Shown: piece after piece, positions 4,418 through 58,828 of the stretch
Position numbering within the stretch: the stretch's first letter is position 1
How the letters are laid out: each line of letters begins with the position of its first letter
Virus record (IMG/VR): IMGVR_UViG_3300021518_000005
Location: 19,228-83,227 of that record
Reading direction: 5' to 3' (one strand)
Origin: a virus
Length of the DNA: 64,000 bases
Position numbers and translations under genes: made by a program
The notes under the pieces: model-generated
Told to the model about the DNA's origin: nothing
The model's input: only the letters and a program-made list of their open reading frames with translations
Database searches by the model: none

Positions 4418-5505
4418 CGTAAACTCATCGGCATAATCACATGGACATAATCGCTCATGTTACCAACAGGACGCACAACAAGCGGCTGTGTGCTACTTTG
4501 CGTCTCAATAGACACTGTTTGCGTATCAAGTCGTGCTAGCACTTCCAGGAAGTAGAGTACGTTAATGGCAATAACCCCAACACCAGTAACGACAGCATCA
4601 ACATCACCTTGATTATCGCCCACCTCAGCAGCATTAGCACTCAACGTAATACCATCCGATGCCATTTCGAGCTTGATAACGTTTTGCGCATTGACTGCAA
4701 ACAACTTCGCAAGATTGACCGCTCGAATGAGTGCAAGCCGATCAACTACTGCCCGCGCCGTATACGAATCCGGCAGAATACGGCGGAAATCGGGATATTT
4801 TCCCTCGATTAGCCGAGACATGACTTGTGTCTCGTTGTCACTAAAAAAGACCTGATTAGCTGTCATGGCAACATGGCACGTATCGCCATGTAAGACTGAT
4901 GCAACGAGGGCCACGGTGCGCGCCGGAATAATGATCGGCGCATCCTCTTCGCCCTCAACTGCCAGCGTCTCTACGGCCATGCGAAAACCGTCTGCTGCTG
5001 CAATACTCAGTGCATTGTTGCGGCGCTCTAAAAGCACGCCAGCGAGCACGGGGCGGCTATCATCAGTTGCCGCTGCAATACCGACGCGCTCAAATGCATG
5101 CAGCAGTAACGCGCTAGGAAATGTATCTACAAAATCAGTCGGCATCGCGGGAACGGATGGAAACTCATCAGCATCAATACCCCTAATGCTTGTCTTAAAT
5201 CTTGATGCCTGTACCTGCAATGTTGCTTTTGTATTATCCCATGCCAGTGTCACGTCACCCTCTGGCAGCGCAGACACGACATCGGAGAGAAGTTTGAACG
5301 GAACAGTACCAGACCAATCCATAGTACTACGCGCCTGTAGTTTTGTGGTAATAGCCGTGTCGAGATTAGTACTACTCAGCGTTAACGTACTATCCTCGAC
5401 GCGCATGAGTACATTTGAGAGTACCGGCAACGTCGTTTTACCTGCGACCGACCGACCGACCAAGTTCAATTTTTTCTTAAACTCACCTTGTTGCACCGTT
5501 GTCAT
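4414..5505 (-). CDS. dnaN: DNA polymerase III beta sliding clamp
   Basis: 363 aa; LPVLSNVL, STNLD, SRPVLAGV, AADGFRMA, SRLIEGKYPDF, C-terminal VIMPM. Confidence 0.95.
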   Translation of the reverse strand: MTTVQQGEFKKKLNLVGRSVAGKTTLPVLSNVLMRVEDSTLTLSSTNLDTAITTKLQARSTMDWSGTVPFKLLSDVVSALPEGDVTLAWDNTKATLQVQASRFKTSIRGIDADEFPSVPAMPTDFVDTFPSALLLHAFERVGIAAATDDSRPVLAGVLLERRNNALSIAAADGFRMAVETLAVEGEEDAPIIIPARTVALVASVLHGDTCHVAMTANQVFFSDNETQVMSRLIEGKYPDFRRILPDSYTARAVVDRLALIRAVNLAKLFAVNAQNVIKLEMASDGITLSANAAEVGDNQGDVDAVVTGVGVIAINVLYFLEVLARLDTQTVSIETQSSTQPLVVRPVGNMSDYVHVIMPMSLR

Positions 5506-16204: not shown

Positions 16205-16702
16205 GTTTTTTCTGGAATGCTCAAAAAGGCCCTGAAATAGCCCATTTTGGGCGACTTAAGCCCCGCGAGATGAAACTTAAGTTTTTCTTTCGGGGCTTTC
16301 TTTTGGCTTTGTAGTCATTAAAATCGAGGCTTAAGTTTTTTATTAGGCGACTTAAGTTTTCCATGCGCTTTTCAAAAACTTAAGTCGCTTGTGGGCAAAA
16401 ACTTAAGTTTTTGCAGACCATTTCAATCGGGCATAATCGTGTGCAGCAGACAAGAATCTCATGCTTGTACTTGACTTGGCAAAAAACAAGTAGGGCAATG
16501 ACTTGCACACTTGATACGCAATGCAAGTCAAACATTCTACTGGAACACTTGACTTGTTTTTCATCGAGCAATTCAGGCAAGTCAACTACTCATAAAGGCA
16601 AGTACAAAAACAAGTGAGGTGGCAAGTCCGGGCAAATCAAGTAGACAAGTCAAGCCTTGTTTCTTGACTTGCCAAAACAAGTACTTGACTTGTCTACTTG
16701 TC
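15760..16702. repeat. dense CAAGT/ACTTG and CTTAAG repeat field
   Basis: by hand count, >20 CAAGT/ACTTG in 15760-16060, 7 CTTAAG in 16199-16408 and ~19 CAAGT/ACTTG in 16460-16702. Confidence 0.85.
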
Positions 16703-17025
16703 TAACGAGACAAGGCGCGTAACCTGCACAAGCGATATACTTTGTACTCCATGTCGCGCTTGCCTCGATTGCAACTTGCACAGCACGCTACCACATTGGC
16801 CTCAGTATATCCGTGTCGATTATTCACACGATCAATACCTTGATATACAACGGTGTTGATTTTGTATTGCGGCTGGCAGTACACGCCAGATGGAGCACAG
16901 CCGCAGTAGTGGCACAGCTGCTGAATGAGTGTATCGAACACATCCATATCAAGCTCGAATGACAGATCACGGCGCTTTGCGTCATACTTGTAACGGCGGA
17001 AAAGATGTTTGACGACTGGCAGCAT
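16702..17025 (-). CDS. HNH-type endonuclease-like protein
   Basis: CHYCG...IDRVNN..GY...NVV.CC..CN..K. Confidence 0.8.
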   Translation of the reverse strand: MLPVVKHLFRRYKYDAKRRDLSFELDMDVFDTLIQQLCHYCGCAPSGVYCQPQYKINTVVYQGIDRVNNRHGYTEANVVACCASCNRGKRDMEYKVYRLCRLRALSR

Positions 17026-17064
17026 GGTAATTGTCCTTGCTCGATATGTATGTTCCCTGACACA

Positions 17065-17094
17065 ATCTTACCATATCGGTAAGATACTTGTCTA
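17065..17094 (-). promoter_or_regulatory. promoter/operator copy 7
   Basis: TAGACA-18-TAAGAT with perfect palindrome at 17066-17084. Confidence 0.75.
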
Positions 17095-17154
17095 GTGACA
17101 AAATACTCACATGATCAACCAAAACTCTTTACACTTGGCATTTCCTGAAGAAGT

Positions 17155-17182
17155 TTGACATTTCTTACCGCTATGGTATACT
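17155..17182 (+). promoter_or_regulatory. promoter/operator copy 8, upstream of the ncRNA cluster
   Basis: TTGACA-16-TATACT; TCTTACC-GCTAT-GGTATAC. Confidence 0.8.
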
Positions 17183-17250
17183 GTGGGTGAGCCGAACGCA
17201 AGACTAGTCCCGAGGGTGCAGCGAGGTCATACGTTGATTAGTAGGCCCAT

Positions 17251-17340
17251 GGGAGCGCAGTAGGTTTCGATAGGGCGCGATGAGCACGAAAGCGCACAGC
17301 TCCGCTCTAGACGCGAGTGCAACTCTCGCCGCTTCCACCA
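17251..17340 (+). ncRNA. minimal tmRNA-like RNA (tRNA-like domain only)
   Basis: acceptor GGGAGCG/CGCTTCC with G3.U70, discriminator A and encoded CCA; GGTTTCGA D-loop; helix TAGGGCG/CGCTCTA; GAC linker; T arm GCGAG-TGCAACT-CTCGC. Confidence 0.8.
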
Positions 17341-17800
17341 GTTAGGGCATACTAGGCATGTCTAGGTTAACCGCTTTGAATGGCACCGTGCCTCTCTGTC
17401 ATTCAACCTGTATGGAGTAAGCAGGAACAAAGGGATGTAAACGCCTTGCTGTAGGTTCCTTGTGGGCCATGAGTAGAACGGATAAGACCGCCGTTGGAAT
17501 GACGGCGCGGGATCGGTAATCCGCACTCGTAATCTCTGCCGATCTGCTGACAAGTGGAGAACTTGTCACTGTACAGGTAATGATCGGTGCAGCGCGGTAA
17601 AAAAACAGCTATGTGTGCATGTGGGTGAGGCTGTCGGTGTTGGGCCGTAGGGAGTACTATATAACGATAGCGTTGTATAACCTGATCGTATCCGTCGCTA
17701 ATCCAACTAGGCGAGGCGCATGCACACACCGCGCATTCACGGCGACACCTGCCAAGCATTCTAGATACTGCAAGTGGTGCGACACGTAGCGGAGAGACGC
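17341..17800 (+). ncRNA. putative structured non-coding RNA(s)
   Basis: no credible ORF on +; many hairpins and long-range pairs (gtgtgcatg/catgcacac, gcgcggt/accgcgc). Confidence 0.4.
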
Positions 17801-17809
17801 TACTCTTGC

Positions 17810-17899
17810 GGGCTTAAAGCGTAGTAGGTAAACTGCGTGCCGACTGATCAGCGGCCCTGTGTAAGACACGGGTAGAGGGTTCGAGTCCTTCAAAGCCCA
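17810..17899 (+). tRNA. atypical tRNA, GAT anticodon, long variable arm
   Basis: GGGCTT/AAGCCC acceptor; extended D stem; CTGATCA loop; 7-bp variable stem; GAGGG-TTCGAGT-CCTTC T arm; no encoded CCA. Confidence 0.6.
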
Positions 17900-17942
17900 A
17901 CAATATTGTTATTATAAAAATCAAAGGAGTGACTGTATACGT

Positions 17943-18248
17943 ATGGCTGATGTGGTGGCTGCATTTGGGGATTTTGGTGTTTTTAGCCATGCCGCGCCAA
18001 ATATGGCCGGTACTGTTCGTGAGCGTGATCTGGAATTTGTCGATGCAACGGTGTCGTTATCGAATGTCTCCCCGTCAAGTTCGATTGATCTTACTAATCC
18101 TGAGCTACTGACTTTCAAGGTTGCCAAAGATGAAGTGTTTGGTACGCTTTCTGCACAGTTGACGGTGCTGCTCACGGGAGAGGAACAAAGAGAATTGAAG
18201 GCGATTGCAGAACGCATTGAGCGGCGTGTGAAGGCGCTTATCAGGTAA
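17943..18248 (+). CDS. hypothetical protein
   Basis: AAGGAG SD; 101 aa. Confidence 0.6.
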   Translation: MADVVAAFGDFGVFSHAAPNMAGTVRERDLEFVDATVSLSNVSPSSSIDLTNPELLTFKVAKDEVFGTLSAQLTVLLTGEEQRELKAIAERIERRVKALIR

Positions 18249-18340
18249 CATGTTTCCTCTTTGTTGGGATGGTTGACGATAACGCTAGCCATCCCAACTA
18301 TTGAAATAATCCTAGAATATCTCCAAGGAGTTGATGATCT

Positions 18341-19915
18341 CTGAATCGCACTGGGATTGCTGGTGCTGTCGCCGCCGTTATTGTTACTGTTGTTATTGTT
18401 CTCCCGCATGGTTCCTCGACTGATGCGCCTCCGCCTGTATTTGTGACAGCTCACGTCATAACGGCTACAGCAGAATTGACCACTACACATCACGAAGATC
18501 CTACAAACACGCCAGAAGCGCCTACAGCCACCGAAACAGCTACGCTAGAGCCAACACACACCACTGAACCTACAATCCCTCCTGGGCCGTCTGAGAAACC
18601 TACGGAAGTCGTTACAAGCACTGCTACGACCACGACAACAAATACCGTAGATTCGACAGCAACATCTACGGCTGCCGCAACTTTTACACCCACGTCAGAA
18701 GCCTCTATAACGCCCACAGAAACACCTACAGCGAGCGCCACGGCCACTACGACGCCCACGCCTACGGCGGTTCCTACAGCCACTCCTGTGGTGTTCCTGG
18801 AAACGTTTGACGGATTGCCATCACAACCATTAGCCTTCTCAAGCAGCCAATGGGATATTATGGCGCACAGCCGTGATCCGTTGTATCGACAAGTTCCTGA
18901 GCCAATGGATGCGCAACATGACGGTGCAACATGCGATGTCCATGGCGCGCACACGATCACAACCTACACACAAACCGCGTTCATCTGCCGTAATCATCTC
19001 ATGACGGCTATTAAGGGAACTGACTACGCGATTGTGTACCTTGCGCCTAATGCCATGCTCGATTGGTCGCAAAACACAGCTACACTGCGTTTTGACGTTT
19101 CAACCATGCGAACGACAAGCCGCGATTGGTGGGATATTTGGATCACGCCATGGGGCGATGTGTTGTCGTATCCCTCTGATGGATCGTTTCCCGATGGGAA
19201 TGGCGAGCCGCGCAACGCCATCCACATTCGCATGAATCAGTTCAACGGCAAGACCACGTTTAACGTCAATCAAGTCGTGAATTATGTCTCATCGCCGGTG
19301 CCTGGTTCCATTGTCGGTGGCCGCGTCTACGAGAATGTATTAACACCGGATTATGTGCGGCGCGACACGTTTGAGCTACGCCTATCGAGCACACACATCT
19401 CGTTTTGCATGCCCGACTATACTCACTGTTGGGCTGATAATCTACCGTTGGCTACGTCGCTCGACTGGAATAGCGGCGTGGTACAGATCGGTCATCACTC
19501 CTACAATCCGCTGAAGGGCTGCATCGCGGGGCGTACACCATGTCAGCCAAATACCTGGCATTGGGATAATGTCCGCATGGAGCCAGCATTGCCATTCCAA
19601 ATCATTCGCAGCGCGCCGCGTGCCGCATCGCTCACAATTACGAACGACACATTGACACTTGAGCGGCCTGCACCAGCAGGCGCTATCGTTCGATTTTTGG
19701 CTATCGGGAATGCTATCGAGGTGTCATTCGACGGTGGCAATACATGGCAACCAGCCGTCAAGCGTGAGCAGGAAAACAATCAGCCGGAACGGTTCAGCTC
19801 GTATTGGATGCCGATACCGGAAGGCACCACAGCAATCAAGGTTCGCGGCCAACGTTGGACAAGCAGCAGCGCAGGTGATTGGTGGGTTCACTCGCTCAGT
19901 GTGTGGGCGCGCTAG
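18341..19915 (+). CDS. membrane-anchored or secreted protein with Thr/Pro-rich linker and beta-rich domain
   Basis: TPT-rich linker; frame extends upstream of 18443 through a hydrophobic helix to CTG 18341, after AAGGAG; start uncertain. Confidence 0.7.
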   Translation: MNRTGIAGAVAAVIVTVVIVLPHGSSTDAPPPVFVTAHVITATAELTTTHHEDPTNTPEAPTATETATLEPTHTTEPTIPPGPSEKPTEVVTSTATTTTTNTVDSTATSTAAATFTPTSEASITPTETPTASATATTTPTPTAVPTATPVVFLETFDGLPSQPLAFSSSQWDIMAHSRDPLYRQVPEPMDAQHDGATCDVHGAHTITTYTQTAFICRNHLMTAIKGTDYAIVYLAPNAMLDWSQNTATLRFDVSTMRTTSRDWWDIWITPWGDVLSYPSDGSFPDGNGEPRNAIHIRMNQFNGKTTFNVNQVVNYVSSPVPGSIVGGRVYENVLTPDYVRRDTFELRLSSTHISFCMPDYTHCWADNLPLATSLDWNSGVVQIGHHSYNPLKGCIAGRTPCQPNTWHWDNVRMEPALPFQIIRSAPRAASLTITNDTLTLERPAPAGAIVRFLAIGNAIEVSFDGGNTWQPAVKREQENNQPERFSSYWMPIPEGTTAIKVRGQRWTSSSAGDWWVHSLSVWAR

Positions 19916-20155
<240 letters not shown>

Positions 20156-20162
20156 CAAGACC

Positions 20163-22085: not shown

Positions 22086-22165
22086 CAATTGCTTCGACCT
22101 GAACACAGTATAAATCAAACAACTTGATTGTTGAATGATAAATACCTGATATTTAGGTGATAATT
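22086..22165 (-). repeat. 80-bp direct repeat copy 2
   Basis: near-identical to 20796-20875; contains AATCAA-N5-TTGATT palindrome. Confidence 0.85.
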
Positions 22166-23270
22166 ACTCAGATGTGTCCTGCAACTTCCTAGCCACATCC
22201 TCCAATGCGGCGCGCTCATCAGCGCTGTACGAATGGATGTACACGCGCTCCGTGATGCTGGTAGTGCTATGGCCGAGTACATCACGCGCCACTGTCGAGG
22301 CATACCCGCTTTGGGCGATAAGCGATGCTACCGCATGGCGAAGATCATGTAATCGGATCGATTGCGGCAGCCCGATTCGCTTCAAGTCGGCCTTGAACGA
22401 CCGCCAGAGATTATGCGGGTTGTACGGTGTGCCAACTTCAGATGGAAATACAAGTTGATGATCTTTCCATCCTGGTGCATCGCGCTCCTCATTTTGCACA
22501 GCCCTATGCACCTCAAGTGTTTGTACAAGCCACGGCGCAAGCGGAAGCGTTCTAACACCGCTCTCGGTTTTTGCATCAGCAATATGCAGCGTGCCAGCTT
22601 GCATATCAACATCGGCCCACTTCAGCGCGATTAATTCGCCACGTCGAAGGCCGAGTGATGCGCCAATGACATAGAGTGCATAGCGCCGTGTACCGCGTGC
22701 GCCATCGAGTAGTTGTCGGATATGCTCAATGGATACCGGCTGCACTTTGTACTTTCTTGGTTTTGGCACATCAACATGTTCAGCCACGTTCCGTTGCACC
22801 ATTTCGAGACGTACACCGTCGTTGAGTGCTCGACTCAAAACACCATGCGCGTATTCGATGGTACGAGTACTCAAGAGTGCGTCACGTTTCTTAGAACGCT
22901 TGTCACGCAGTTCTGAGAGCCAATGCTGTATATCTTGTGGCCGGAGCTTTACAAGTTTGATATGGCCGATATGCGGCTCGATATGCAGTCGAGACATATC
23001 ACGGTAGCTTTCGTAGGTTCGCGCCTTGCCTGGTTTGACCGTATGCTCTAGCCAATACGCCATGTACTGCGTGACTGTCATTTTATTGTCGATTGGCTCA
23101 GAGCCACGATTAAGTTCAGCCAAGATATTCGCTTGCCAGGTTGCAACTTCCTTGCGTGTCTTGCCGTATTTCCACTTGCGTTTCCCATTGCCAAGTGATA
23201 CAGCTGCGTACCATGTCCCGTCTTTGCGCTGCCCAATAGTGCCTTCATTTTGACCGCGTTTCTTAGGCAT
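22164..23270 (-). CDS. int: tyrosine integrase
   Basis: RGQNEGTI N-terminus; GLRRGEL, HDLRH, LGHS...Y catalytic motifs. Confidence 0.95.
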   Translation of the reverse strand: MPKKRGQNEGTIGQRKDGTWYAAVSLGNGKRKWKYGKTRKEVATWQANILAELNRGSEPIDNKMTVTQYMAYWLEHTVKPGKARTYESYRDMSRLHIEPHIGHIKLVKLRPQDIQHWLSELRDKRSKKRDALLSTRTIEYAHGVLSRALNDGVRLEMVQRNVAEHVDVPKPRKYKVQPVSIEHIRQLLDGARGTRRYALYVIGASLGLRRGELIALKWADVDMQAGTLHIADAKTESGVRTLPLAPWLVQTLEVHRAVQNEERDAPGWKDHQLVFPSEVGTPYNPHNLWRSFKADLKRIGLPQSIRLHDLRHAVASLIAQSGYASTVARDVLGHSTTSITERVYIHSYSADERAALEDVARKLQDTSE

Positions 23271-28384: not shown

Positions 28385-28840
28385 TTACGGTAATACATAC
28401 ACACATACATGTACACTCGATAAATACTGATCAATCATTGGTTCAATCTTGCGCCAGTCACCACCGGCAAGACCTGTACCAATCTTCGGCATATGCACAT
28501 CAAGGCCGCGTTCCGTTGCTTCTCGTTCGAGAAACATAAGACATGTACGCAATGCCTCATACCTCAATGGTACTTTATTTTGAGGCGAACGCAAACCGGA
28601 TTGTGCAATCATATTGCAGACCCATATCTCGTTATGAATATGTACCATTTGTATATCACCAAGATATAGTCCATGTTGTTTTCGCGCTTGATGATAGTCC
28701 AATTCAGGTTTTTTCCACTGTCTTGAGAGAGCAGTAACAAAACCTTTTCCCCACGCCCCTTGATCGTTGCATACATGCGCCACAATTGCGCGTTCACTAC
28801 CAATATGTTGAAAAAGGTCGCCTGTAATATATGTGATCAT
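28385..28840 (-). CDS. macrodomain (Poa1p/DarG-like) protein
   Basis: GDLF, AHVCN..G.WGKGF, MPKIGTGLAGGDW. Confidence 0.85.
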   Translation of the reverse strand: MITYITGDLFQHIGSERAIVAHVCNDQGAWGKGFVTALSRQWKKPELDYHQARKQHGLYLGDIQMVHIHNEIWVCNMIAQSGLRSPQNKVPLRYEALRTCLMFLEREATERGLDVHMPKIGTGLAGGDWRKIEPMIDQYLSSVHVCVYVLP

Positions 28841-28890: not shown

Positions 28891-31599
28891 CTAGCACGCG
28901 GTATACTCACAGGCTGTACACTTTGTACAGCCCTCCGATTTCATGAGACTAAATTGCTTGCGCGGGCATGGGCATAGCATCCCCGTAGCCTTGTGTGGCG
29001 TTTTAGCTACTGGTGTCTCTGCCTCGACTGCCCGATATGTGGTGCTGTACTCCGCTAGCACCTTGCCTATTGCATCCGGCACACTAGCTACCCGATTCAG
29101 CCCAAAACCAATGCTAGTACTTCCGCCGATTCCACGCAATTGCTCGCTAATCAAGTCAACACCAATGCCACAACGCAGCGCAAGCGACACGAGACGGCCT
29201 AGCGCCTCGGTGAAAGCACTCAAGTCACTTCCTGCTCTTCCGATAACTGCAAACGTCTCGACGGGCGCTCCATCCATCTCTGTCACAAACAGATGGAGAT
29301 CACCTAATGGTGTTCTTACGCGATGCGCGGTCGCTGGTAGCTCATCAGGCACATCAATCGGCCATGACCGTAGCTCCTGTACCTCGACAATTTCCGGCCA
29401 TTCTGCTGATTCAGTACTGCTTGTTGTGTTGCCTGTTGATAACACCTGCCCTGAGCGTGAGCCGTCTCGATAGACCGTAATACCCTTACATCCGAGCCGA
29501 TATGCTAGCTCGTATGCCTGTACAACATCCTCAATGGTAGCTGATTGCGGCGCGTTAATTGTTTTACTGATGGCACTATCAACATGGCGCTGAAATGCGG
29601 CCTGCATGCGTACATGCCACGACGGATCAATCTCGTTTGCTGTTCGGAATAGGCGTTGCACGGCTGCCGGAATTTCAGGATGTTGAATACTTCCCGTGGC
29701 TGCAATGCGCTCCATTAACTCATCAGTGTACCATCCCTCCCGTTGAGCGCGTGCCACAAAATCAGCATGCACATCAGGAAGCTGCATACCGGCCTGGTTA
29801 CGCATAAACGCCACGGCAAATAATGGTTCGACACCACCTGAGCAGCCAGCAATGATACTGATACTGCCAGTCGGTGCAACAGTCGTCACATTACAATGCC
29901 GCATCTCGATATGTGGGTGAATGCGCCGCCCTTGACTATCTCTTGCACATGTCTCATCCGGCCCCCAGGTGCTTTCGATCCATTCAGGAAACACGTTGCG
30001 TTCATCGGCAAGATCGCTACTGGCGGCATGTGCTATAGTCTGAATACGACTCATCACATAATCAGCAAGTTCAAGCGCATCCTCACTATCATACGGAATA
30101 TTGAGTTTAATCAAGGCGTCGGCCCAACCCATCACACCAAGGCCAATGCGCCGAATGCTCTGTGCCAAACTTGTAATAGCTGGCAGTGGATAGGTATTTG
30201 CGTCAATGACATTATCGAGGAAGCGAACGGCAATACGTACTGTATCCTCCAATCCTGTCACGTCTATCGAGCGCGTATCCTCGTCAACAAATGCACTGAT
30301 ATTGATACTGCCAAGATTACATACATCATTTGCAAGAAGCGCTTGCTCACCGCAATTATGTACCAAAAACCCTGTCACCAAGGAGCCATTATGGGCTTTC
30401 TTGTCACATATAAAGAAATTATGCGCCTCCTCCACAGTGCCATCATAAACATCGGCGCAACCATCAGGAATGACCGACATAACAACATGGTTGCTATTGC
30501 ATTGCTCAATAAAAGATCTTTCACTGCCAAATAAACGCGCTAAAACCTTACGACCGGGCAGGTTTTCTTTACGTGCGTGCGCAAGCCATTCGGTTAATGT
30601 AATAGGCCGACCAAGAACATTTGATAGTTTCACGCCCTGATGTAGTACATCATCGGCCTGAACATCCTTGTATTGGCTATTCATTGCACCTAACGCATGA
30701 AACTGCTTGTGTTCCTTGCTTCCCATAACCGTCAAATTATCCAGTCTGTTGTCTGTAAAGTCACCATTGACGTGATGAACAACCTGATCAATTGATAGAG
30801 TTTCCCCTGTAACGTACTCCATGAGTAAACGATAATGGGGACGGAACACGCTCAAGCCATTGCGCACCATCATATCTCCACGACGTGCGCCTTGCTTAAT
30901 GAAATGAGGGTAGAGTCGATCACCAACGCAAAGATCACTCGCCTTCTTCCATGTACCATCACGCAACATAAACAAATGATCGGGCGTACATTGTACAAAA
31001 TCTAAATCACGACCAACAGTAGTGCCTCCGCGTTTGTCATACGTTACACGTACAAGTGGCTTGTTTTTGCCTGTTTTGTGAATATTGTACATGCGTCGAA
31101 CAACAGTTTTGTCGTTCAACAGACAGTACACCAAAGGTTCTGTGCCAACAAGATCAACAAATGGCTTTGGCCCTTCCACAGTTGAAACAAGTGTGTCGCC
31201 CGTAAAGCAAGGATTACACGCCTCGTAACGTCCGAGATGCGGCACGGGATTGTAGTAGTTTACTCTATCAATAAAGAATAATCCTGGTTCACCCGTTTCC
31301 CATGCACATTGTGCAATAAGACTAAATACAAGACGCGCTTGAATGATAGCAGGATAGCCCGCTTGAACCAAGACATCACCTGTAAGTGGATGAGTCATTG
31401 TCTCGTTTGGTACATGCACATCGCCTGTACGCGGATTCATTAGCATGTACGGCGCATCATCATATACGGCCTGCATAAAATCATCAGTGATAGCCACTGA
31501 AATGTTGAAATTCGTCAGCTTTGTTGTGTCGCGCTTGCATGTGATAAACCTCAGAATATCAGGATGTGTACAATGCAGGATCGCCATGTTCGCCCCACG
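28891..31599 (-). CDS. nrdJ: class II (B12) ribonucleotide reductase, exon 2, containing an intein
   Basis: RGANM, GEPG, NP(intein)CGEQ, CNLGS, IGLGVMG, APTGS, ISKTIN, ITVYRDGSR, C-terminal TSCPD-like domain with terminal Cys. Confidence 0.93.
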   Translation of the reverse strand, partial: RGANMAILHCTHPDILRFITCKRDTTKLTNFNISVAITDDFMQAVYDDAPYMLMNPRTGDVHVPNETMTHPLTGDVLVQAGYPAIIQARLVFSLIAQCAWETGEPGLFFIDRVNYYNPVPHLGRYEACNPCFTGDTLVSTVEGPKPFVDLVGTEPLVYCLLNDKTVVRRMYNIHKTGKNKPLVRVTYDKRGGTTVGRDLDFVQCTPDHLFMLRDGTWKKASDLCVGDRLYPHFIKQGARRGDMMVRNGLSVFRPHYRLLMEYVTGETLSIDQVVHHVNGDFTDNRLDNLTVMGSKEHKQFHALGAMNSQYKDVQADDVLHQGVKLSNVLGRPITLTEWLAHARKENLPGRKVLARLFGSERSFIEQCNSNHVVMSVIPDGCADVYDGTVEEAHNFFICDKKAHNGSLVTGFLVHNCGEQALLANDVCNLGSINISAFVDEDTRSIDVTGLEDTVRIAVRFLDNVIDANTYPLPAITSLAQSIRRIGLGVMGWADALIKLNIPYDSEDALELADYVMSRIQTIAHAASSDLADERNVFPEWIESTWGPDETCARDSQGRRIHPHIEMRHCNVTTVAPTGSISIIAGCSGGVEPLFAVAFMRNQAGMQLPDVHADFVARAQREGWYTDELMERIAATGSIQHPEIPAAVQRLFRTANEIDPSWHVRMQAAFQRHVDSAISKTINAPQSATIEDVVQAYELAYRLGCKGITVYRDGSRSGQVLSTGNTTSSTESAEWPEIVEVQELRSWPIDVPDELPATAHRVRTPLGDLHLFVTEMDGAPVETFAVIGRAGSDLSAFTEALGRLVSLALRCGIGVDLISEQLRGIGGSTSIGFGLNRVASVPDAIGKVLAEYSTTYRAVEAETPVAKTPHKATGMLCPCPRKQFSLMKSEGCTKCTACEYTAC
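30355..31209 (-). mobile_element. intein (285 aa) with HNH-type endonuclease
   Basis: begins CFTGDTLV, block B CTPDH, HHVNG...DN..DNL, ends VHN followed by Cys. Confidence 0.92.
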
Positions 31600-31679
31600 C
31601 ATATGTGTTACACTGCATAAGCAGGACTAGATCATTTCTGTCTAGTTCTTGCGTTTTCACGCAAGATCGGATCATATCA

Positions 31680-47392: not shown

Positions 47393-47421
47393 TTGACAAT
47401 ATCTTACCGACATGGTAAGAT
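47393..47421 (+). promoter_or_regulatory. promoter/operator copy 13, upstream of the RNA-guided nuclease
   Basis: TTGACA-17-TAAGAT; TCTTACC-GACAT-GGTAAGA. Confidence 0.85.
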
Positions 47422-47428
47422 GAGATGT

Positions 47429-49009
47429 ATGAAGATGAAGCGAGCGCCACGACCTCACACAATTGAACGCACGTACAAGTACCGCGTGTACTTAACACCG
47501 CATCAAGAACGCCTTATTGCCTCTTGGCAAGAGGTATTACACACCTTGCAGAGACGTGCAATTGTGGAGTATCGTGACTGGCTCAAGCATTCTAAGCAGC
47601 AACATGCGCTTGGATTGCAGCCAGAATACAAAGCGCCATCGTTTTTTTCATGGACAAAAGACCTGACACAGTGGCGGCATGATGATCTTGCTGTTGCTGC
47701 GGTGCCTTGTGAAATTGAGCGAGCCATACTGAGGCGTGTGTATCTCGCCTATCAAGCCATGTGGCAGAAATGGAAGCAAGGCAAGGAGGCGTGGCCGAAA
47801 TATGCACGACATAGCAAGGATATTGGTTTAACGTTTCAGGGTACTCATCGTGGTACACGTCTGCTTGCTGACACAGGGCGAATCCGACGATGGGTATTAG
47901 CTGGAAGTGGTGAACTTGGCACCATCAAGGTTCGCATGCATCGACCATTACCGGCAGGAGTCATTGTTAATCAAGTGCATTTGACGCCATCCGCCGATGG
48001 ATGGCATGCCTCGTTTACTTGCACTATTCCGGCTGTGGATGAATCATTGCCATCGACAGGCATGCAGATCGGTGTTGATCTGAACGTCAAGCACGATGGT
48101 GATGTGCAACAGGTTGCTGCTGTCAGTGATGCACGCCTGTATAAGCAGATCAGTCATCTCAAGCGCAATATGAAATTACTGGCGCATTTACAGAAAATGG
48201 CATCAAACCGGCGCGTGCATGCAAACGCTAAACACGCTGATCCTGCCAGTAAGCGCACGGCTAAACGTAAAGCACGAATTGCCAAAATCCACCAGCGCAT
48301 TCAACGGCAACGAGAGCATACGCAGCAGTATATTGCCAAGCGCCTTGTTGATAGTGCTGATGTGATTGTATTCGAGCAACTGAATCACACGGCGATGCGC
48401 AGTAGTGGCAAGAAAAAACGCAGTAAACAGGCAGAGTATATCGAGCCAGTATTGCCAACAAAAAAGAAGCGGGTTAAGCTTGGTTCAAAAGCGGCAGCCC
48501 GAAAACGAAAACGCGGCCTTAATCGTGCATTATCAACTGCTGCACCAGGTCGATTAATTGCCTTAACGAAAGAAAAGTCAGCCAAGGCAAGGCGTGATGT
48601 GCGTATGGTGCCAGCACACAATACATCACAGATGTGTTCAGTGTGTGGGGATATTAACAAGCATCAGAAAAAGACACTTGATATTCGTGCATGGACATGT
48701 GCCAAGTGTGGCGCACAGCACGATAGAGACATTAACGCGGCTCGGAACATTCGAGCACGCGGGTTAGGCGAAGAACCTACGTTCAGTGGGGGATTGCGCG
48801 GAGAGGCTGCTGCACCTCGGTGCGAACGGCAGTCGAAGGATAGTGATACGTCATTATCTGAGTACCGCGAAGTGGTTCAACCACAGGTGGTGAGAAACAC
48901 CGCCGATCACATACATCAACATACGACAGCAACGCTTGTTCGCAACTCGCGACGGAAAACACGCATTCCACAAGTTGCGGGACAAATGAGCTTTTTTGAT
49001 CACGTTTAG
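47429..49009 (+). CDS. tnpB: TnpB-derived compact type V (Cas12f/n-grade) RNA-guided nuclease, 526 aa
   Basis: TYKYRVYLT N-terminus; RuvC-I GVDLN, RuvC-II VFEQL, CSVC/CAKC zinc finger, RuvC-III DRDINAARNI; adjacent CRISPR array; no tnpA nearby. Confidence 0.9.
   Translation: MKMKRAPRPHTIERTYKYRVYLTPHQERLIASWQEVLHTLQRRAIVEYRDWLKHSKQQHALGLQPEYKAPSFFSWTKDLTQWRHDDLAVAAVPCEIERAILRRVYLAYQAMWQKWKQGKEAWPKYARHSKDIGLTFQGTHRGTRLLADTGRIRRWVLAGSGELGTIKVRMHRPLPAGVIVNQVHLTPSADGWHASFTCTIPAVDESLPSTGMQIGVDLNVKHDGDVQQVAAVSDARLYKQISHLKRNMKLLAHLQKMASNRRVHANAKHADPASKRTAKRKARIAKIHQRIQRQREHTQQYIAKRLVDSADVIVFEQLNHTAMRSSGKKKRSKQAEYIEPVLPTKKKRVKLGSKAAARKRKRGLNRALSTAAPGRLIALTKEKSAKARRDVRMVPAHNTSQMCSVCGDINKHQKKTLDIRAWTCAKCGAQHDRDINAARNIRARGLGEEPTFSGGLRGEAAAPRCERQSKDSDTSLSEYREVVQPQVVRNTADHIHQHTTATLVRNSRRKTRIPQVAGQMSFFDHV
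48906..48946 (+). ncRNA. putative tracrRNA anti-repeat inside the effector 3' end
   Basis: ATCACATACATCAACAT is a 15/17 match to the repeat reverse complement; CTTGTTCGCAAC complements the repeat 5' end with one bulge. Confidence 0.6.
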
Positions 49010-50995: not shown

Positions 50996-51661
50996 ATGGC
51001 CGATGCCAGCGATCCTAAACTCAAACCAGGCCGCTCGCCGCGCCGCCAAAAAAAAGCAACTGACGATCTTCGGCTAGAGCGTCAGTTCTTTGTGTGCAAT
51101 TTGCGTTTTCACGAAAAGCTCTCGTATATTGAAATAGCCGAGCGCTACCAGCAGACATACAACGAGACTATCGCGGTATCGACTATTGGCGAATGGATAC
51201 GGGAACATCGCAAGCGCTATCTGGCTGAGATTGATGGCATGCTCGATGTGGAGCGTGAAGAGCATCGCGCTATTCTCGATTATGCGCTGTCTGAGGCAGT
51301 GAAAGGATGGCGCAACAGCCTACAGCCGACAAAGAAAAAGAGTGTCATTGTTGAAAATGGTATTGAGCCAAAGACCGGCAACGCCTACGACAAACAGATT
51401 ATTGGCGATGAAGAAACCAGTAATGCGGGTGATCCGCGCTTCTTGAAGGTCATGATTGAAGCGTTAAATCGCCATGCCAAGCTGACAGGTATCGATCCTG
51501 CACCGAAATCAGCCCAACGAGTTGACGCGCCGGAAGCCAACCCTGACAAAATGCCCTGGGCAATTATGGCGGCTGCCTTGCAGGATAAATTTGAAGCCTT
51601 GGACGATGATGATCGGCGCTTAATCTTGGGTGAAGTGGAGGATACCGGCGATGCAACATGA
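50996..51661 (+). CDS. terminase small subunit (putative)
   Basis: HTH N-terminus; overlaps the terL start. Confidence 0.65.
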   Translation: MADASDPKLKPGRSPRRQKKATDDLRLERQFFVCNLRFHEKLSYIEIAERYQQTYNETIAVSTIGEWIREHRKRYLAEIDGMLDVEREEHRAILDYALSEAVKGWRNSLQPTKKKSVIVENGIEPKTGNAYDKQIIGDEETSNAGDPRFLKVMIEALNRHAKLTGIDPAPKSAQRVDAPEANPDKMPWAIMAAALQDKFEALDDDDRRLILGEVEDTGDAT

Positions 51662-52911
51662 CGCTATCGCCAAAGCAGGAACAGGTATTACTCTCTGCGC
51701 AGTTTGGAAAGACACGCCTTAACATTCTTGATGGTGCAGTACGATCAGGTAAGACCTATATTAGCATTCCTGCCTGGGTGCAGTTCGTCACCTCGTTTCC
51801 TGATCCGACTATCCCCTTTTTGATGACGGGCCGAACAGAGCGCACGTTGTATCGGAATGTTATTGGGCCGATGATCGGCATGTACGGCACATCGCACATT
51901 AAGTACAAAGGCTCACTTGGAGAGTTGCGTATCGGTGATCGTCTCTGTTATCTCGCTGGCGCATCGAATGAAAAGTCAGAACACAAAATTCGTGGTCTTA
52001 CCGTAGGCGGCGTGTACAGCGATGAGTTAACATTACATTCACAGTCGTTCACCTCCATGGCTCTCAGTCGCATGAGTGTACCAGGTGCTCGATTTTTTGC
52101 AACAACAAATCCCGACTCACCAGCACACTACGTCAAGAAGAACTTCCTTGATCGTGCAGCAGATTTAGATTTACGCCATTGGCGCTTTCGCCTAGAAGAT
52201 AATCTTCATCTTCCTAAAGAATATATTCGAGCGCTTAAGGCGGAATTTTCAGGATTGTTTTATCGCCGCCTGATTTTGGGCGAATGGTGCATGGCCGAAG
52301 GTGCTATTTATGATTGTTTTGACCCATCACTTCATGTTGTCGACTCACTGCCTGATAAGCGCATTCGTGCATGGGTTGGTATCGACTATGGCACGATGAA
52401 CGCTACCGCATTTGTGTATATCCTGGAAGCACTTGACAGCACCAACAGACCAGCGCTGTACATTGCCGATGAGTACTATCACGATGGCCGTGGAAGTGGA
52501 AAGCAAAAAACTGATGCACAATATAGTAGTGATCTCAAACTCTGGCTAAAACAACTTCCTCTTGAGCCAGATAGGATTTACATTGATCCAAGTGCCGCGA
52601 GTTTTATTACACAATGTCATCGAGATGGCATTGCTCGTGTTAGCCACGCGAATAATGATGTATTAGATGGCATTCGCAGTGTGAGTATGCTGTACGCAGA
52701 TCAGCGTTTATTCTACGTGAAGCACAAAGCACCGATAACGCAAGAGCAGACACAAGGCTATACGTGGGATGATAAAGCAACGTTGCGCGGGGAAGACAAA
52801 CCGATCAAGGTAAACGATCATACACAAGACGCTAAACGATACGGCATCATGGGTGCTCGAAACACATGGCGACACTGGTTTACCGCAACAACACTACCAA
52901 GAAAGAAATAA
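51658..52911 (+). CDS. terL: terminase large subunit (PBSX-type)
   Basis: GAVRSGKT, YSDE, TTNPD, GIDYG, DPSA, DHTQDAKRY. Confidence 0.95.
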   Translation: MTLSPKQEQVLLSAQFGKTRLNILDGAVRSGKTYISIPAWVQFVTSFPDPTIPFLMTGRTERTLYRNVIGPMIGMYGTSHIKYKGSLGELRIGDRLCYLAGASNEKSEHKIRGLTVGGVYSDELTLHSQSFTSMALSRMSVPGARFFATTNPDSPAHYVKKNFLDRAADLDLRHWRFRLEDNLHLPKEYIRALKAEFSGLFYRRLILGEWCMAEGAIYDCFDPSLHVVDSLPDKRIRAWVGIDYGTMNATAFVYILEALDSTNRPALYIADEYYHDGRGSGKQKTDAQYSSDLKLWLKQLPLEPDRIYIDPSAASFITQCHRDGIARVSHANNDVLDGIRSVSMLYADQRLFYVKHKAPITQEQTQGYTWDDKATLRGEDKPIKVNDHTQDAKRYGIMGARNTWRHWFTATTLPRKK

Positions 52912-52923
52912 CGAGGCGCGTTT

Positions 52924-54450
52924 ATGCCACTTGATATTGCTGCTACATCTGAATGGCCTCCTGCCTGGTGTCGTGGGCCGGTGTATTGGAAGTACGCAGA
53001 ATGGGATGCGTGGTTCTCTGGCTCCCCTGATCGCCTTGCAGCCTATTATAGCCATGCCGTATCATGCGACACACCGCAAGGCCATATGTGGGCGCGTGAA
53101 GTCAAGCAGCAGATGAGCACCGTGGTACACATGCCACTTGCGGGCGACATTGCCGCTACGAGTGCAGCACTATTGTTTAGCGAAGCACCGATCTTCAGTA
53201 TTAATCCTACAACGTCTCAGAACGTCGTAGCAGCCCAACAACGCCTTGATGCATACATTCAGCGAGCAAACATCATAGCCAAGCTCCTAGAGGCTGCTGA
53301 GACGTGCGCAGCCCTGGGCGGCGTGTATCTCCGCGCAACCTGGGATGTGCGTCTTGTCGATTATCCTATCCTCGATGTGGTACAGCCGGATAATGTGGTG
53401 CCAGAATGGGCATGGGGCATGCTACGGGCGGCTACATTCTGGCAGGTCGTGTATGAAGATGAAAAGGAATGTTTGCGCCATTTAGAGCGTCACGAAATCG
53501 GCGCGAACGGGAATGCACACATTTATCATTATCTGTATCGAGGAACATACGGAAAGGCGGGCGTGCCTATCCCGCTTACTGCAAGTGGGGTGACAGCTGA
53601 TCTCCCGCCATTTATCGATACAGGCATTAAAGGCCTTGATGTGCGGTATATTCCGAACATGCGCCCGAATCGCTTGGAGCGTCAATCGCCGCTTGGGGTA
53701 TCGGATTACGTGAGCAAAGAGTCCCTATTTGCCTCGCTTGATGAGGTCTGGACTCAACTGATGAACGAACTCATTCTTGGTAAAGCACGGCTGTTTGTGC
53801 CTGAAGAATACCTTGACTTTTCGCATTCCCGCGCTACATTTAATGTGGACACCTCCGTATTTACGCCACTGAATGTTGACCCGATGAGTACCGAGTCTTT
53901 TAACGGCGTCAAAATGATACAGCCTGATTTGAGAGTCGACAAGTATTTGCTTGCCTGTCACAGCCTCGTGCGTGAACTGATTAGTCGCTGTGGATATGCA
54001 CCGCAATCGTTCGGCCTCGACATCGAGGGTAATGCACCATCAGGTACCGCGCTGCGCATTCGGGAGCGCAAGAGCTTGATTACGCAAGGCAAGAAGCAAG
54101 GATATTGGCAGAGTGCATTGCAGGATATGCTAGGTATTCTCTTACAGCTCGATTACACTGTATTCAATAGTGGTATTTTGCCGAGTCAGGTGCTGGTACA
54201 ATATGCCGACTCAGTGCATTTTGATATGGCTGAAGTTGCGCAGACCGTCAACATGCTCTCAGCAGCAAACGCGGCAAGCGTTGAGGTAAAAGTACGCATG
54301 CTCCATCCTGATTGGAGTGATGATCAGGTATTGCAGGAAGTAACCACAATCAAACAGGAAAGCGGATCAGTTGTGCCTGATCCGCTCGAAATGATGATGA
54401 TTGCCGGTATTGAACCGGATGGAGAAGTTGGAGAAGTTGGAGAAGTTTAA
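52924..54450 (+). CDS. portal protein
   Basis: 508 aa after terL; ALGG, Y.PN, PLGVSD, SGTA motifs (A118/SPP1-like). Confidence 0.9.
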   Translation: MPLDIAATSEWPPAWCRGPVYWKYAEWDAWFSGSPDRLAAYYSHAVSCDTPQGHMWAREVKQQMSTVVHMPLAGDIAATSAALLFSEAPIFSINPTTSQNVVAAQQRLDAYIQRANIIAKLLEAAETCAALGGVYLRATWDVRLVDYPILDVVQPDNVVPEWAWGMLRAATFWQVVYEDEKECLRHLERHEIGANGNAHIYHYLYRGTYGKAGVPIPLTASGVTADLPPFIDTGIKGLDVRYIPNMRPNRLERQSPLGVSDYVSKESLFASLDEVWTQLMNELILGKARLFVPEEYLDFSHSRATFNVDTSVFTPLNVDPMSTESFNGVKMIQPDLRVDKYLLACHSLVRELISRCGYAPQSFGLDIEGNAPSGTALRIRERKSLITQGKKQGYWQSALQDMLGILLQLDYTVFNSGILPSQVLVQYADSVHFDMAEVAQTVNMLSAANAASVEVKVRMLHPDWSDDQVLQEVTTIKQESGSVVPDPLEMMMIAGIEPDGEVGEVGEV

Positions 54451-57709: not shown

Positions 57710-58828
57710 ATGAGCCAAGCACGTAATGACATCAGTATTGAACTTGCCCGGTCGGTAGCACGTATCTATGAGCAAGTCGAATATGAGTTGCTGCGCAAGA
57801 TAGCGCGGCGTCTTGCTCGTGGGGCGACTGAACCAGGATGGGCAGAGGCGAAAATGCAAGAGATTGTGGCATTGCGCGCTGAACTTGCGGCTATCATTGC
57901 TTGGCTTCAACGCAACGGTGCCAGTGCGCTCGATGATGCAGCAATTCAAGCGTATATACAGGGTGACACAGAAGCTCGCCTAGACTTGCGCCGTGTGTAT
58001 GCGAGTGCAGCTCGATTGCAGGCAGACCGCCGTACAACATTGGTAGCTGCTAGGGCTTATGCAGATGCCAATAAACAAACGTTTCTTGACTCACATCTGA
58101 GTGTCTATCGTGGCACCGAGGATGTCTACCGTTCAATTATTGCGAAAGCCGCACAACTGACAACGACAGGAACGATTACAACACAAGAAGCGATGCGTCG
58201 TGCGCTGTATGAATTTACTGATCGTGGAATTACGCGCTTTGTTGATAGGCGCGGGCGCTCGTGGGGCATGCAAGAATATGCAGATATGGCCGTGCGTACA
58301 GCGGTGACACGGGCATATATTCAAGGCTCTGTTGATCAATACCAGCAAAATGGGCATAACTTAGTTATTGTGTCGAATTCGCCTGAAGAATGTTCGTTGT
58401 GTCGCCCATGGGAAGGTAAAATTCTATCGCTTTCAGGGCGGCAATACAACTATATCAGTAATTCGTATTATCCGAGCATACAAGAAGCGACGGCTGCCGG
58501 ATTGTTTCATCCAGGATGTACCCATCGTGTGAATGCCTACATTCCAGGCCTTACACGTGAGATGGAAGGCACCGAGAACCCTAAAGGCTATGAAGAACGG
58601 CAAAAACAGCGCGACATGGAACGCACGATACGTCAGTACAAGCGCCGTAAAGTAGCGGCGCAAGCAGTGAGTGACACACAACGCGCTCGTGAAGCACAAG
58701 AGAAGATTGACGCATGGACAGATGCACTTGAGGCATACATTAAGGAAAAAGATCGAACGCGCCGCCGCGATCGTGAGGGTATCGCTCGTGGCATTCCCTA
58801 TGCCTCTGCCGATGACGTAACTTCGTAA
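57710..58828 (+). CDS. minor capsid protein (Phage_min_cap2-like)
   Basis: D..GR.W, YA.MAVRT, C..C.PWEGK, GLFHPGC.H, QR.MER.IR..K. Confidence 0.88.
   Translation: MSQARNDISIELARSVARIYEQVEYELLRKIARRLARGATEPGWAEAKMQEIVALRAELAAIIAWLQRNGASALDDAAIQAYIQGDTEARLDLRRVYASAARLQADRRTTLVAARAYADANKQTFLDSHLSVYRGTEDVYRSIIAKAAQLTTTGTITTQEAMRRALYEFTDRGITRFVDRRGRSWGMQEYADMAVRTAVTRAYIQGSVDQYQQNGHNLVIVSNSPEECSLCRPWEGKILSLSGRQYNYISNSYYPSIQEATAAGLFHPGCTHRVNAYIPGLTREMEGTENPKGYEERQKQRDMERTIRQYKRRKVAAQAVSDTQRAREAQEKIDAWTDALEAYIKEKDRTRRRDREGIARGIPYASADDVTS

Follow-up and report, generated by a model that had tools for sequence, protein, structure and literature searches.

A predicted tag-less mini-tmRNA gene of a temperate sediment phage and its relatives in viral contigs

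Results

Organization of the 90-nt element

The DNA considered here, called the window, is a stretch of 64,000 nucleotides spanning bases 19228-83227 of the 83,227-bp IMG/VR virus record IMGVR_UViG_3300021518_000005, whose completeness is estimated at 85%. On its plus strand, at window positions 17251-17340, lies a 90-nt element that we propose to be a mini-tmRNA gene, that is, a gene for a transfer-messenger RNA (tmRNA) restricted to the tRNA-like domain (TLD). The element begins with GGGAGCG (17251-17257), the 5′ strand of an acceptor stem whose 3′ strand, CGCTTCC (17330-17336), is followed by the discriminator A (17337) and an encoded CCA (17338-17340). This stem has 7 bp, the third of which is a G.U pair (G3 at 17253, U70 at 17334). 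Downstream of the first strand comes a D-loop stand-in devoid of any stem, CAGTAGGTTTCGA (17258-17270), composed of CA, GTA and the tmRNA hallmark GGTTTCGA (17263-17270); a stemless stand-in carrying GGNUUCGA is a feature of the tmRNA TLD. Helix 2 (TAGGGCG, 17271-17277, with CGCTCTA, 17303-17309) encloses a 25-nt insert (17278-17302) that takes the place of the mRNA-like and pseudoknot region, and a GAC connector (17310-17312) leads from it to a T arm (17313-17329) of 5 bp, GCGAG and CTCGC, closing the 7-nt loop TGCAACT with G at position 2. These parts were read from the sequence; the 5′ acceptor strand and helix 2 also appear in the predicted fold and in the alignment to covariance model R2 described below. 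The minimum-energy structure given by RNAfold recovers all three helices; in it the insert forms an irregular hairpin, the loop of which is a GAAA tetraloop (17288-17291).

An initial annotation of this locus had listed the acceptor with G3.U70, the discriminator A, CCA, the D-loop, helix 2a, GAC and the T arm as TLD hallmarks, all of which were recovered by this reading, as was the 25-nt hairpin said to replace message and pseudoknots. It had also described a gene of standard order without a tag reading frame. Indeed the 5′ strand comes first, so that the gene is not permuted, and no tag-like peptide is present in any reading frame of the element, which has no pseudoknots and is not a complete tmRNA. 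Where helix 2 ends, GCG-CGA-TGA could be read as a two-codon ‘tag’; this reading was discarded, since the sequence lies within or beside paired bases and its ending is not tag-like.

The TGCAACT loop and the AGAC preceding it recur at the 3′ ends of full-length tmRNAs that belong to high-GC bacteria (metagenome contigs L292, L293, L298 and L301), a possible hint to the host lineage or to the source of the phage gene.

Covariance models separate the element from tRNAs

When the Rfam tmRNA model RF00023 was scored end to end over the whole record, it gave a single match, exactly at 17251-17340, with 49.2 bits (E 6e-20 per genome) for a gathering cut-off of 47 bits; the element is aligned to model positions 1-374 with about 280 positions deleted. 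For calibration, the same model was run on a Chloroflexaceae metagenome-assembled genome (MAG), where the true 365-nt tmRNA reached 176.8 bits and the best tRNA, a tRNA-Ala, 39.2 bits. Infernal and ARAGORN, the tools that the initial annotation had proposed for its verification, gave divided answers, since this end-to-end score stands beside two failures: ARAGORN called nothing at 17251-17340, and cmscan with Rfam gathering thresholds, in its default mode with filters on, did not report the element. In the evalue mode of cmscan, the 3′ end of the element alone was aligned, with 9.3 bits.

Searched over the whole record, the tRNA model RF00005 (cut-off 29 bits) had no match at the element at E≤0.01, and the element has neither a D stem nor an anticodon arm. 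Nowhere in the 83-kb record did RF04321, which describes permuted and two-piece tmRNAs, match at E≤0.01. The mitochondrial tmRNA model RF02544 gave no match, a silence that carries no weight because its control was silent too in all 14 genomes, as expected for bacteria and archaea.

A second, independent test made use of related genes. Mycobacterium phage DS6A appears as ‘TLD only’ in a list of tmRNAs in Hudson, Lau and Williams 2014 (PMC4131195), and RF00023 located its gene at 28478-28560 of JN698994 (83 nt, 43.2 bits end to end). Model R2 was built, in a leave-one-out manner, from 31 TLD-only genes (hereafter minis), 30 from IMG/VR and that of DS6A, the window element being excluded. It assigned to the window element 62.1 bits (E 1.8e-12), with 19/19 pairs standard and every conserved loop base of the family kept. 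Over the 64-kb window the element was the sole match, the next best site scoring 14.6 bits; on a bacterial genome, R2 gave tRNAs at most 27.2 bits and the 3′ end of that genome's tmRNA 20.4 bits. Because the two independent covariance models and the comparison with the published DS6A gene agree, the identification of the element as a predicted phage-borne tmRNA TLD, non-permuted and lacking an mRNA-like domain, is supported.

A family of minis in viral contigs

The family was collected from IMG/VR with a first pattern (TCGA, a gap of 20-50 nt, ACGC, a T-arm skeleton and CCA), which hit at least 120 loci; among the matches listed, 52/120 had a perfect and correctly spaced acceptor of 7 bp. According to ARAGORN, 19 of the 52 are tRNAs and four are ‘tmRNA’ with nonsense tags running beyond the gene; the program left 29 uncalled. 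The 33 loci that are not tRNA calls (the 29 and the four) represent 28 distinct sequences of 68-94 nt with a TLD-only layout. A model R1 built from these minis, DS6A and the window element scored minis at 56-87 bits and added two loci (L037 and L069), tRNAs and the 3′ ends of full-length tmRNAs remaining at or below 48 bits. A second, stricter pattern returned 59 loci, 54 of which hold a mini of at least 55 bits: 22 already known, one (L255) found by the T-loop search described below, and 31 new ones absent from the training sets. Altogether at least 67 IMG/VR loci bear minis, of 63-94 nt, both patterns being narrow.

The initial annotation had also suggested a search for covariation in phage contigs. 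Over 36 distinct rows, 95.3% of the cells are paired, compared with 45-57% when partners are slid by 1-3 columns; double-sided changes occur in 13/19 pairs and the covariation score is 0.614, against at most 0.154. Since the alignments are fitted to the model, pairing figures are somewhat flattered. Helix 2, on which nothing had been selected, is 88.9% paired and 7/7 of its pairs covary, and the two T-stem pairs left free by the search reach 100% pairing, double changes numbering 13 and 10. In the second set, retrieved by pattern alone without a pairing filter, 94.2% of cells are paired overall and 96.3% in the acceptor. The G3.U70 pair is kept in 35/36 distinct rows, both bases being free in the pattern of the first set. 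In the D-loop motif TCG is invariant and GG/A nearly so; the AC of the GAC connector is also invariant in alignment A1, AC being part of the search pattern.

SmpB is encoded neither by the phage studied here nor by any of 40 mini-bearing virus records (0/40), seven of which reach a completeness of 90% or more and four of which bear terminal repeats. The same 40 records contain no full-length tmRNA: all 39 RF00023 matches measure 63-94 nt, and 32/40 records exceed the Rfam cut-off.

Minis are common in viral contigs, yet they are invisible to ARAGORN, and the default Rfam scan missed the window copy. On 35 mini loci ARAGORN never called a stand-alone mini; it made no tmRNA call in 33/35 and a spurious long call in two. 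Phage tmRNA surveys based on this program (e.g. PMC9004378) would therefore miss minis. The two long calls, 343-nt tmRNAs with a 30-residue tag (L009:2976-3318 and L054:4100-4442), were rejected, as their 5′ part looks coding and the mini supplies a 5′ strand itself; a TLD-only mini accounts for no more than the final 85 nt of each call. Long ARAGORN tmRNA calls in phage annotations may hide minis.

Some members have features of their own. The 17.9-kb contig L267 carries two minis 3.5 kb apart, at 1562-1638 and 5108-5183, both on the minus strand, with R2 scores of 87.6 and 67.0 bits. A small insert hairpin, CCGCACGCGG (variants CCGTACACGG and CCCCACGCGGG), is common to DS6A (L002:28495-28520), L042, L067, L083, L106 and L122, mostly flanked by A-rich bases in minis that are otherwise diverged; it is absent from the window copy and may mark a subfamily or a binding site. 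In L083, a 46-kb phage genome rated 100% complete, the mini sits amid an array of at least eight tRNA genes (57-898); tRNA genes beside the mini were seen in 3/35 loci examined.

The window copy, for its part, is a loner in the family. BLAST of the region 16500-18500 and of the 90-nt element against INPHARED phages found no match, and an IMG/VR pattern combining D-loop motif, gap, T loop and ACCA returned 0 loci. A T-loop-specific pattern gave six IMG/VR loci, including one new but unrelated mini (L255, 58.3 bits). In the metagenome collection, 14 loci matched the pattern and none held a mini of at least 55 bits; they are 3′ ends of full-length tmRNAs sharing the T loop. No close relative was thus found in INPHARED, IMG/VR or the metagenome collection.

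Promoter and operator

The mini-tmRNA gene is preceded, 69 nt upstream, by a sigma-70-type promoter at 17155-17182 on the plus strand (TTGACA, a 16-nt spacer, TG and TATACT), which matches the consensus at 11/12 positions and is the best in a 2-kb region. The intervening sequence (17183-17250, plus strand) would supply a 5′ leader of about 60 nt, as deduced from promoter position and sequence; the base before G1 is T, and the leader would presumably be removed by RNase P.

The palindrome TCTTACC-N5-GGTAAGA occurs in 15 copies with at most two mismatches in the window, from 631 to 58923, for 0.10 expected, all listed on the plus strand; it looks like the operator of one repressor spread genome-wide. 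A perfect copy (17066-17084, 0 mismatches) lies 71 bp upstream of the -35 hexamer, and a degenerate copy with three mismatches, read from the sequence at 17163-17181, spans the promoter spacer and the -10. The initial annotation had placed ‘operator-promoter copy 8’ upstream of the element: the strong promoter and the perfect palindrome are there, and the copy within the promoter itself is the degenerate one. Because the promoter overlaps an operator, the gene is probably under the control of the phage's own switch.

The 469 nt that separate the mini-tmRNA gene from the next tRNA-like gene (17341-17809, plus strand) have no Rfam match at E≤10 and a fold z of -1.93, 5/100 shuffles folding equally well. 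On the opposite strand of this stretch a 118-aa open reading frame (17403-17759, minus strand) belongs to no Pfam or PHROG family and is faced by a promoter-like site at 17939-17911. The tRNA-like gene itself (17810-17899, plus strand) is an odd one of 90 nt, whose extra arm is long and whose D stem has 6 bp. The call made by ARAGORN is tRNA-Ile, with GAT as anticodon, which is unexpected in combination with a long arm; the gene scores 23.5 bits with the tRNA-Sec model (cut-off 47) and 19.7 bits with the general tRNA model (cut-off 29).

The phage, its attachment site and its host

The phage is tailed and temperate, comes from sediment and has about 48% GC. The window encodes a terminase large subunit (51658-52911), a portal (52924-54450), a head protein (57710-58828), a tyrosine integrase (22164-23270, minus strand) and replication genes. 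Near the element, the only names given by PHROGs are an HNH endonuclease, an FtsK-like protein and the integrase. A neighbouring protein of 490 aa has no related locus in IMG/VR, and neither it nor six other neighbours has a Pfam family. DNA of the phage is present in sediment metagenomes of two studies: contigs from four DNA runs, compared over the region of the element, are identical apart from one T>C at 17154, those of the second study covering the element partly.

Elsewhere in the window, residues 257-313 of a ribonucleotide reductase large subunit (28891-31602, minus strand) also match an HNH endonuclease family, suggesting that a homing element or an intein-like piece has been inserted there, and a 538-aa TnpB/transposase-like protein (47393-49009, plus strand) matches phrog_506 with E 1e-60.

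The likely attP lies at 19915-20160 (plus strand). It contains a tRNA-Gly(UCC) whose 5′ half has decayed and whose 3′ half, starting with the anticodon stem, is preserved whole, then a hairpin and T-run terminator, with TTACAACAA repeats (GTTACAACAA-type) flanking on both sides and the integrase nearby. The idea that the mini-tmRNA element could itself be an attP for integration into ssrA was discarded, since a separate attP lies beside the integrase and the 5′ TLD half of the element would be needless in an att site.

A 30-nt piece of this tRNA-Gly is found in at least 120 genomes of many phyla. The longest exact extension among the matches listed, 50 nt, is in the Chloroflexaceae MAG, a weak pointer to Chloroflexaceae as a possible host. 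Relatives of the integrase are at most 44% identical and mixed (Actinomycetota, Thermoleophilia, Ktedonobacterales and Chloroflexales). R1 searched over 151 Chloroflexota genomes (30 candidates scored per genome) gave one match, of 45.7 bits and without the D-loop motif; the 31-nt 3′ end of the element, with up to three mismatches, was found in 1/401 Chloroflexota genomes, at an apparent tmRNA 3′ end. The TLD of the Chloroflexaceae MAG's own tmRNA is not specially similar to the phage element.

Discussion

A proposed tag-less competitor of host tmRNA

On balance we favour the view that the element is a functional tag-less mini-tmRNA gene whose product acts through SmpB, by competing with the host tmRNA or by bypassing it. 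SmpB sequestration and tag-less rescue, both put forward in the initial annotation, are the functions that PMC4131195 and PMC11915505 give for such molecules. Both papers report that a molecule similar to the TLD-only tmRNA of DS6A has an inhibitory effect on tmRNA in E. coli, for which titration of SmpB may be the reason.

The following scheme can be proposed. Transcription would start from the promoter at 17155-17182 that overlaps the phage operator, and trimming of the ends would yield a 90-nt RNA terminating in CCA. Host AlaRS would alanylate it via G3.U70 and A73, and host SmpB would bind it, the phage having no SmpB of its own. The mini could then compete with the full-length tmRNA of the host for SmpB, EF-Tu and stalled ribosomes. 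As it carries no message, the ribosomes it enters would not be led to add a degradation tag, and the net effect would be less ssrA tagging in phage development. The conserved D-loop motif, GAC and helix 2 are features of the SmpB-binding domain.

Whether the mini has to be charged bears on its mode of action. An uncharged version is said, in passages of the published work, to inhibit tmRNA equally well. Because G3.U70 is nevertheless near-universal among the natural minis, its conservation suggests that they need charging, and hence that their probable destination is the ribosome and their role more than soaking up SmpB; judged from these alignments, the family-wide alanine identity pair favours a charged, ribosome-entering form over a pure SmpB sponge. 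A tentative and bolder extension, which we would rather doubt at present, is that phage minis at large are widespread, overlooked charged RNAs that enter stalled ribosomes, where alanyl-mini, SmpB and EF-Tu would take nascent chains without tagging them. If so, phage proteins could be spared ssrA-directed proteolysis, or host defences that cut mRNA could be blunted, and the mini gene described here would be switched by an operator governing about 15-20 other promoters.

Several observations weigh against competition with, or bypass of, the host tmRNA, or against the evidence gathered for it. The margin of the element over tRNA-Ala with RF00023, about 10 bits, is real but modest. Its folding energy is ordinary (z -0.05 against shuffles, +1.45 with the leader), and thermodynamics alone is no argument here because the element folds no better than shuffled sequence. 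The T loop with G at position 2 is a minority form, most tRNAs and most minis of the family having T. Acceptor pairing and A73 were imposed on the first set by the pattern and filter, and the pattern also dictated some of the T stem. Selection within the lineage of the window copy is unsupported because no close relative was found. The host is uncertain, and with it the compatibility of the mini with its SmpB and AlaRS. Two sentences citing Mao et al. 2009 disagree on the RNA used in that experiment, which is DS6A's own in one and ‘a similar molecule’ in the other. Finally, if an uncharged version also inhibits, the sponge idea alone leaves the conservation of G3.U70 unexplained.

Alternative explanations

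Among other readings, the one that survives best, although we consider it unlikely, is a beneficial tag-less rescue, in which the charged mini, with host SmpB and EF-Tu, would enter ribosomes that have stalled on broken mRNAs, be they of the phage or of the host, and take the nascent chain. The aim would be to free ribosomes, with recycling by drop-off, peptidyl-tRNA hydrolase or a release-factor-like rescuer, much as proposed for mitochondrial tag-less tmRNAs. The conserved G3.U70 and the encoded CCA of the window copy fit this reading, as do peptidyl transfer to a TLD-only tmRNA in vitro (a passage of PMC3895274, citing Shimizu and Ueda 2006) and the conservation of mitochondrial tmRNAs lacking a tag frame together with SmpB, as stated in a passage of PMC11915505. 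However, the full tmRNA of the host already rescues ribosomes, there is no known release step for a peptidyl-TLD on a message-less ribosome, and the effect published for a TLD-only molecule, as passages of PMC4131195 report it, is inhibition.

The element could instead be a neutral remnant, a full-length phage tmRNA gene left unused after an internal deletion. We give this little credence. The isolation of the window copy, with no relative to reveal purifying selection, would allow it, but all 19 pairs are intact, the conserved loop bases of the family are kept and a near-consensus promoter stands in front. Furthermore, at least 67 viral contigs have a gene of this architecture, with compensatory changes among them, so that the short form appears to be maintained, and an origin by deletion is in any case compatible with function.

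Less probable still is a tRNA-like decoy for a target other than SmpB, be it a nuclease or sensor by which host defence recognises tmRNA or tRNA; AlaRS, EF-Tu or RNase P could also be titrated. The conserved features match the SmpB-binding domain, and the idea is purely speculative, no such system having been linked to minis in this analysis. It draws some interest from the location of the element in a non-coding stretch near another odd tRNA-like gene (17810-17899), from predicted defence systems with SmpB-like domains (in a passage of PMC11090510) and from an anti-CRISPR of phage origin with fragments of tRNA and tmRNA among its ligands (in a passage of PMC11662646).

Two remaining ideas are very improbable. 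The first, half of a split tmRNA pairing with a separate phage coding RNA, had been raised in the initial annotation as what could overturn its reading; it finds an echo in a weak local match of the permuted model (11.1 bits, E 9.7) that links the T arm with GGGATCG at 17501-17515, but the 90 nt contain the acceptor with its two strands, a hairpin of its own closes helix 2, RF00023 sees one site, and RF04321 is silent at E≤0.01 in the 83-kb record, 85% complete, outside of which a piece could lie. As for an unusual tRNA or a chance look-alike, the silence of ARAGORN and default cmscan and the ordinary folding energy are outweighed by the absence of an RF00005 match at E≤0.01, of a D stem and of an anticodon arm, and by the E values of RF00023 (6e-20) and R2 (1.8e-12).

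Significance

For ribosome rescue and the quality control linked to it, bacteria rely mainly on trans-translation, which is a pursued antibiotic target. TLD-only minis are now known in at least 67 viral contigs in addition to DS6A and the phage studied here, and if they reprogramme rescue, they would offer a set of compact natural tools for inhibiting or bypassing tmRNA-SmpB. Taken alone, the window adds one further member of the family, in a new type of temperate sediment phage. The novelty implied by the initial annotation was overstated, since a phage TLD-only tmRNA was reported in 2009 and 2014. In sum, the element is solidly identified and belongs to a published class, and its proposed mechanism is easy to test, the conserved G3.U70 posing a testable question on the mode of action of minis.

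Comparison with known systems

Full-length tmRNAs (RF00023) share with the window element the acceptor with G3.U70, the D-loop motif, helix 2a, GAC and the T arm. The element, in contrast, has no mRNA-like region, tag frame or pseudoknots and cannot direct tagging. Phages may also carry full-length genes, as the Bxz1-like mycobacteriophages do (PMC4131195), or a two-piece tmRNA, as in Melnitz (PMC9004378). TLD-only fragments engineered in the laboratory have the same domain content and, in the passages of PMC3895274 that describe them, accept a nascent peptide in vitro, yet they are constructs derived from bacterial tmRNA and not natural genes.

Tag-less tmRNAs also exist in organelles, in jakobid and other mitochondria (RF02544), and passages of PMC11915505 add two plastid genes of Mallomonadaceae, of about 65 bp. 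Like the phage minis, the organellar molecules retain little beyond the TLD, and in these passages they are thought to work with SmpB without tagging. They differ in that they are mostly permuted and reside in organelles, with SmpB encoded in the nucleus.

The closest known system is the gene of DS6A, the one phage named with a TLD-only tmRNA in the searchable literature, in which we found no paper on a wide phage family; the 2025 tmRNA database counts, in the passage concerned (PMC11915505), nine ‘standard, no CDS’ (coding sequence) sequences in all. Both are phage genes of standard order without a tag frame, with a 7-bp acceptor containing G3.U70, CA after the acceptor, a stemless D-loop motif and a short helix 2 closed by an insert of 20-25 nt (20 nt in DS6A); the T stems, GCGAG/CTCGC, are identical. 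Their scores are also comparable, 43.2 bits for DS6A and 49.2 bits for the window element with RF00023, 67.3 and 66.8 bits with R1. The differences are in detail and in setting. DS6A has 83 nt and a helix 2 of 5-6 bp, the window element 90 nt and 7 bp; the D-loop motif is GGTCGAC in the former and GGTTTCGAT in the latter, and the T loop TTCGATT instead of TGCAACT. DS6A ends in ACTA, CCA not being encoded, whereas the window gene encodes CCA. The DS6A insert holds CCGCACGCGG, as in several IMG/VR minis and unlike that of the window. The former is a 60-kb actinophage with 69% GC in the gene, the latter an 83-kb sediment phage with about 48% GC, and no sequence similarity between the two is detectable by BLAST. 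Because the DS6A gene shares its architecture, the kind of element described here was already known, and the window element is, as judged from its sequence, a member of the DS6A-type TLD-only tmRNAs.

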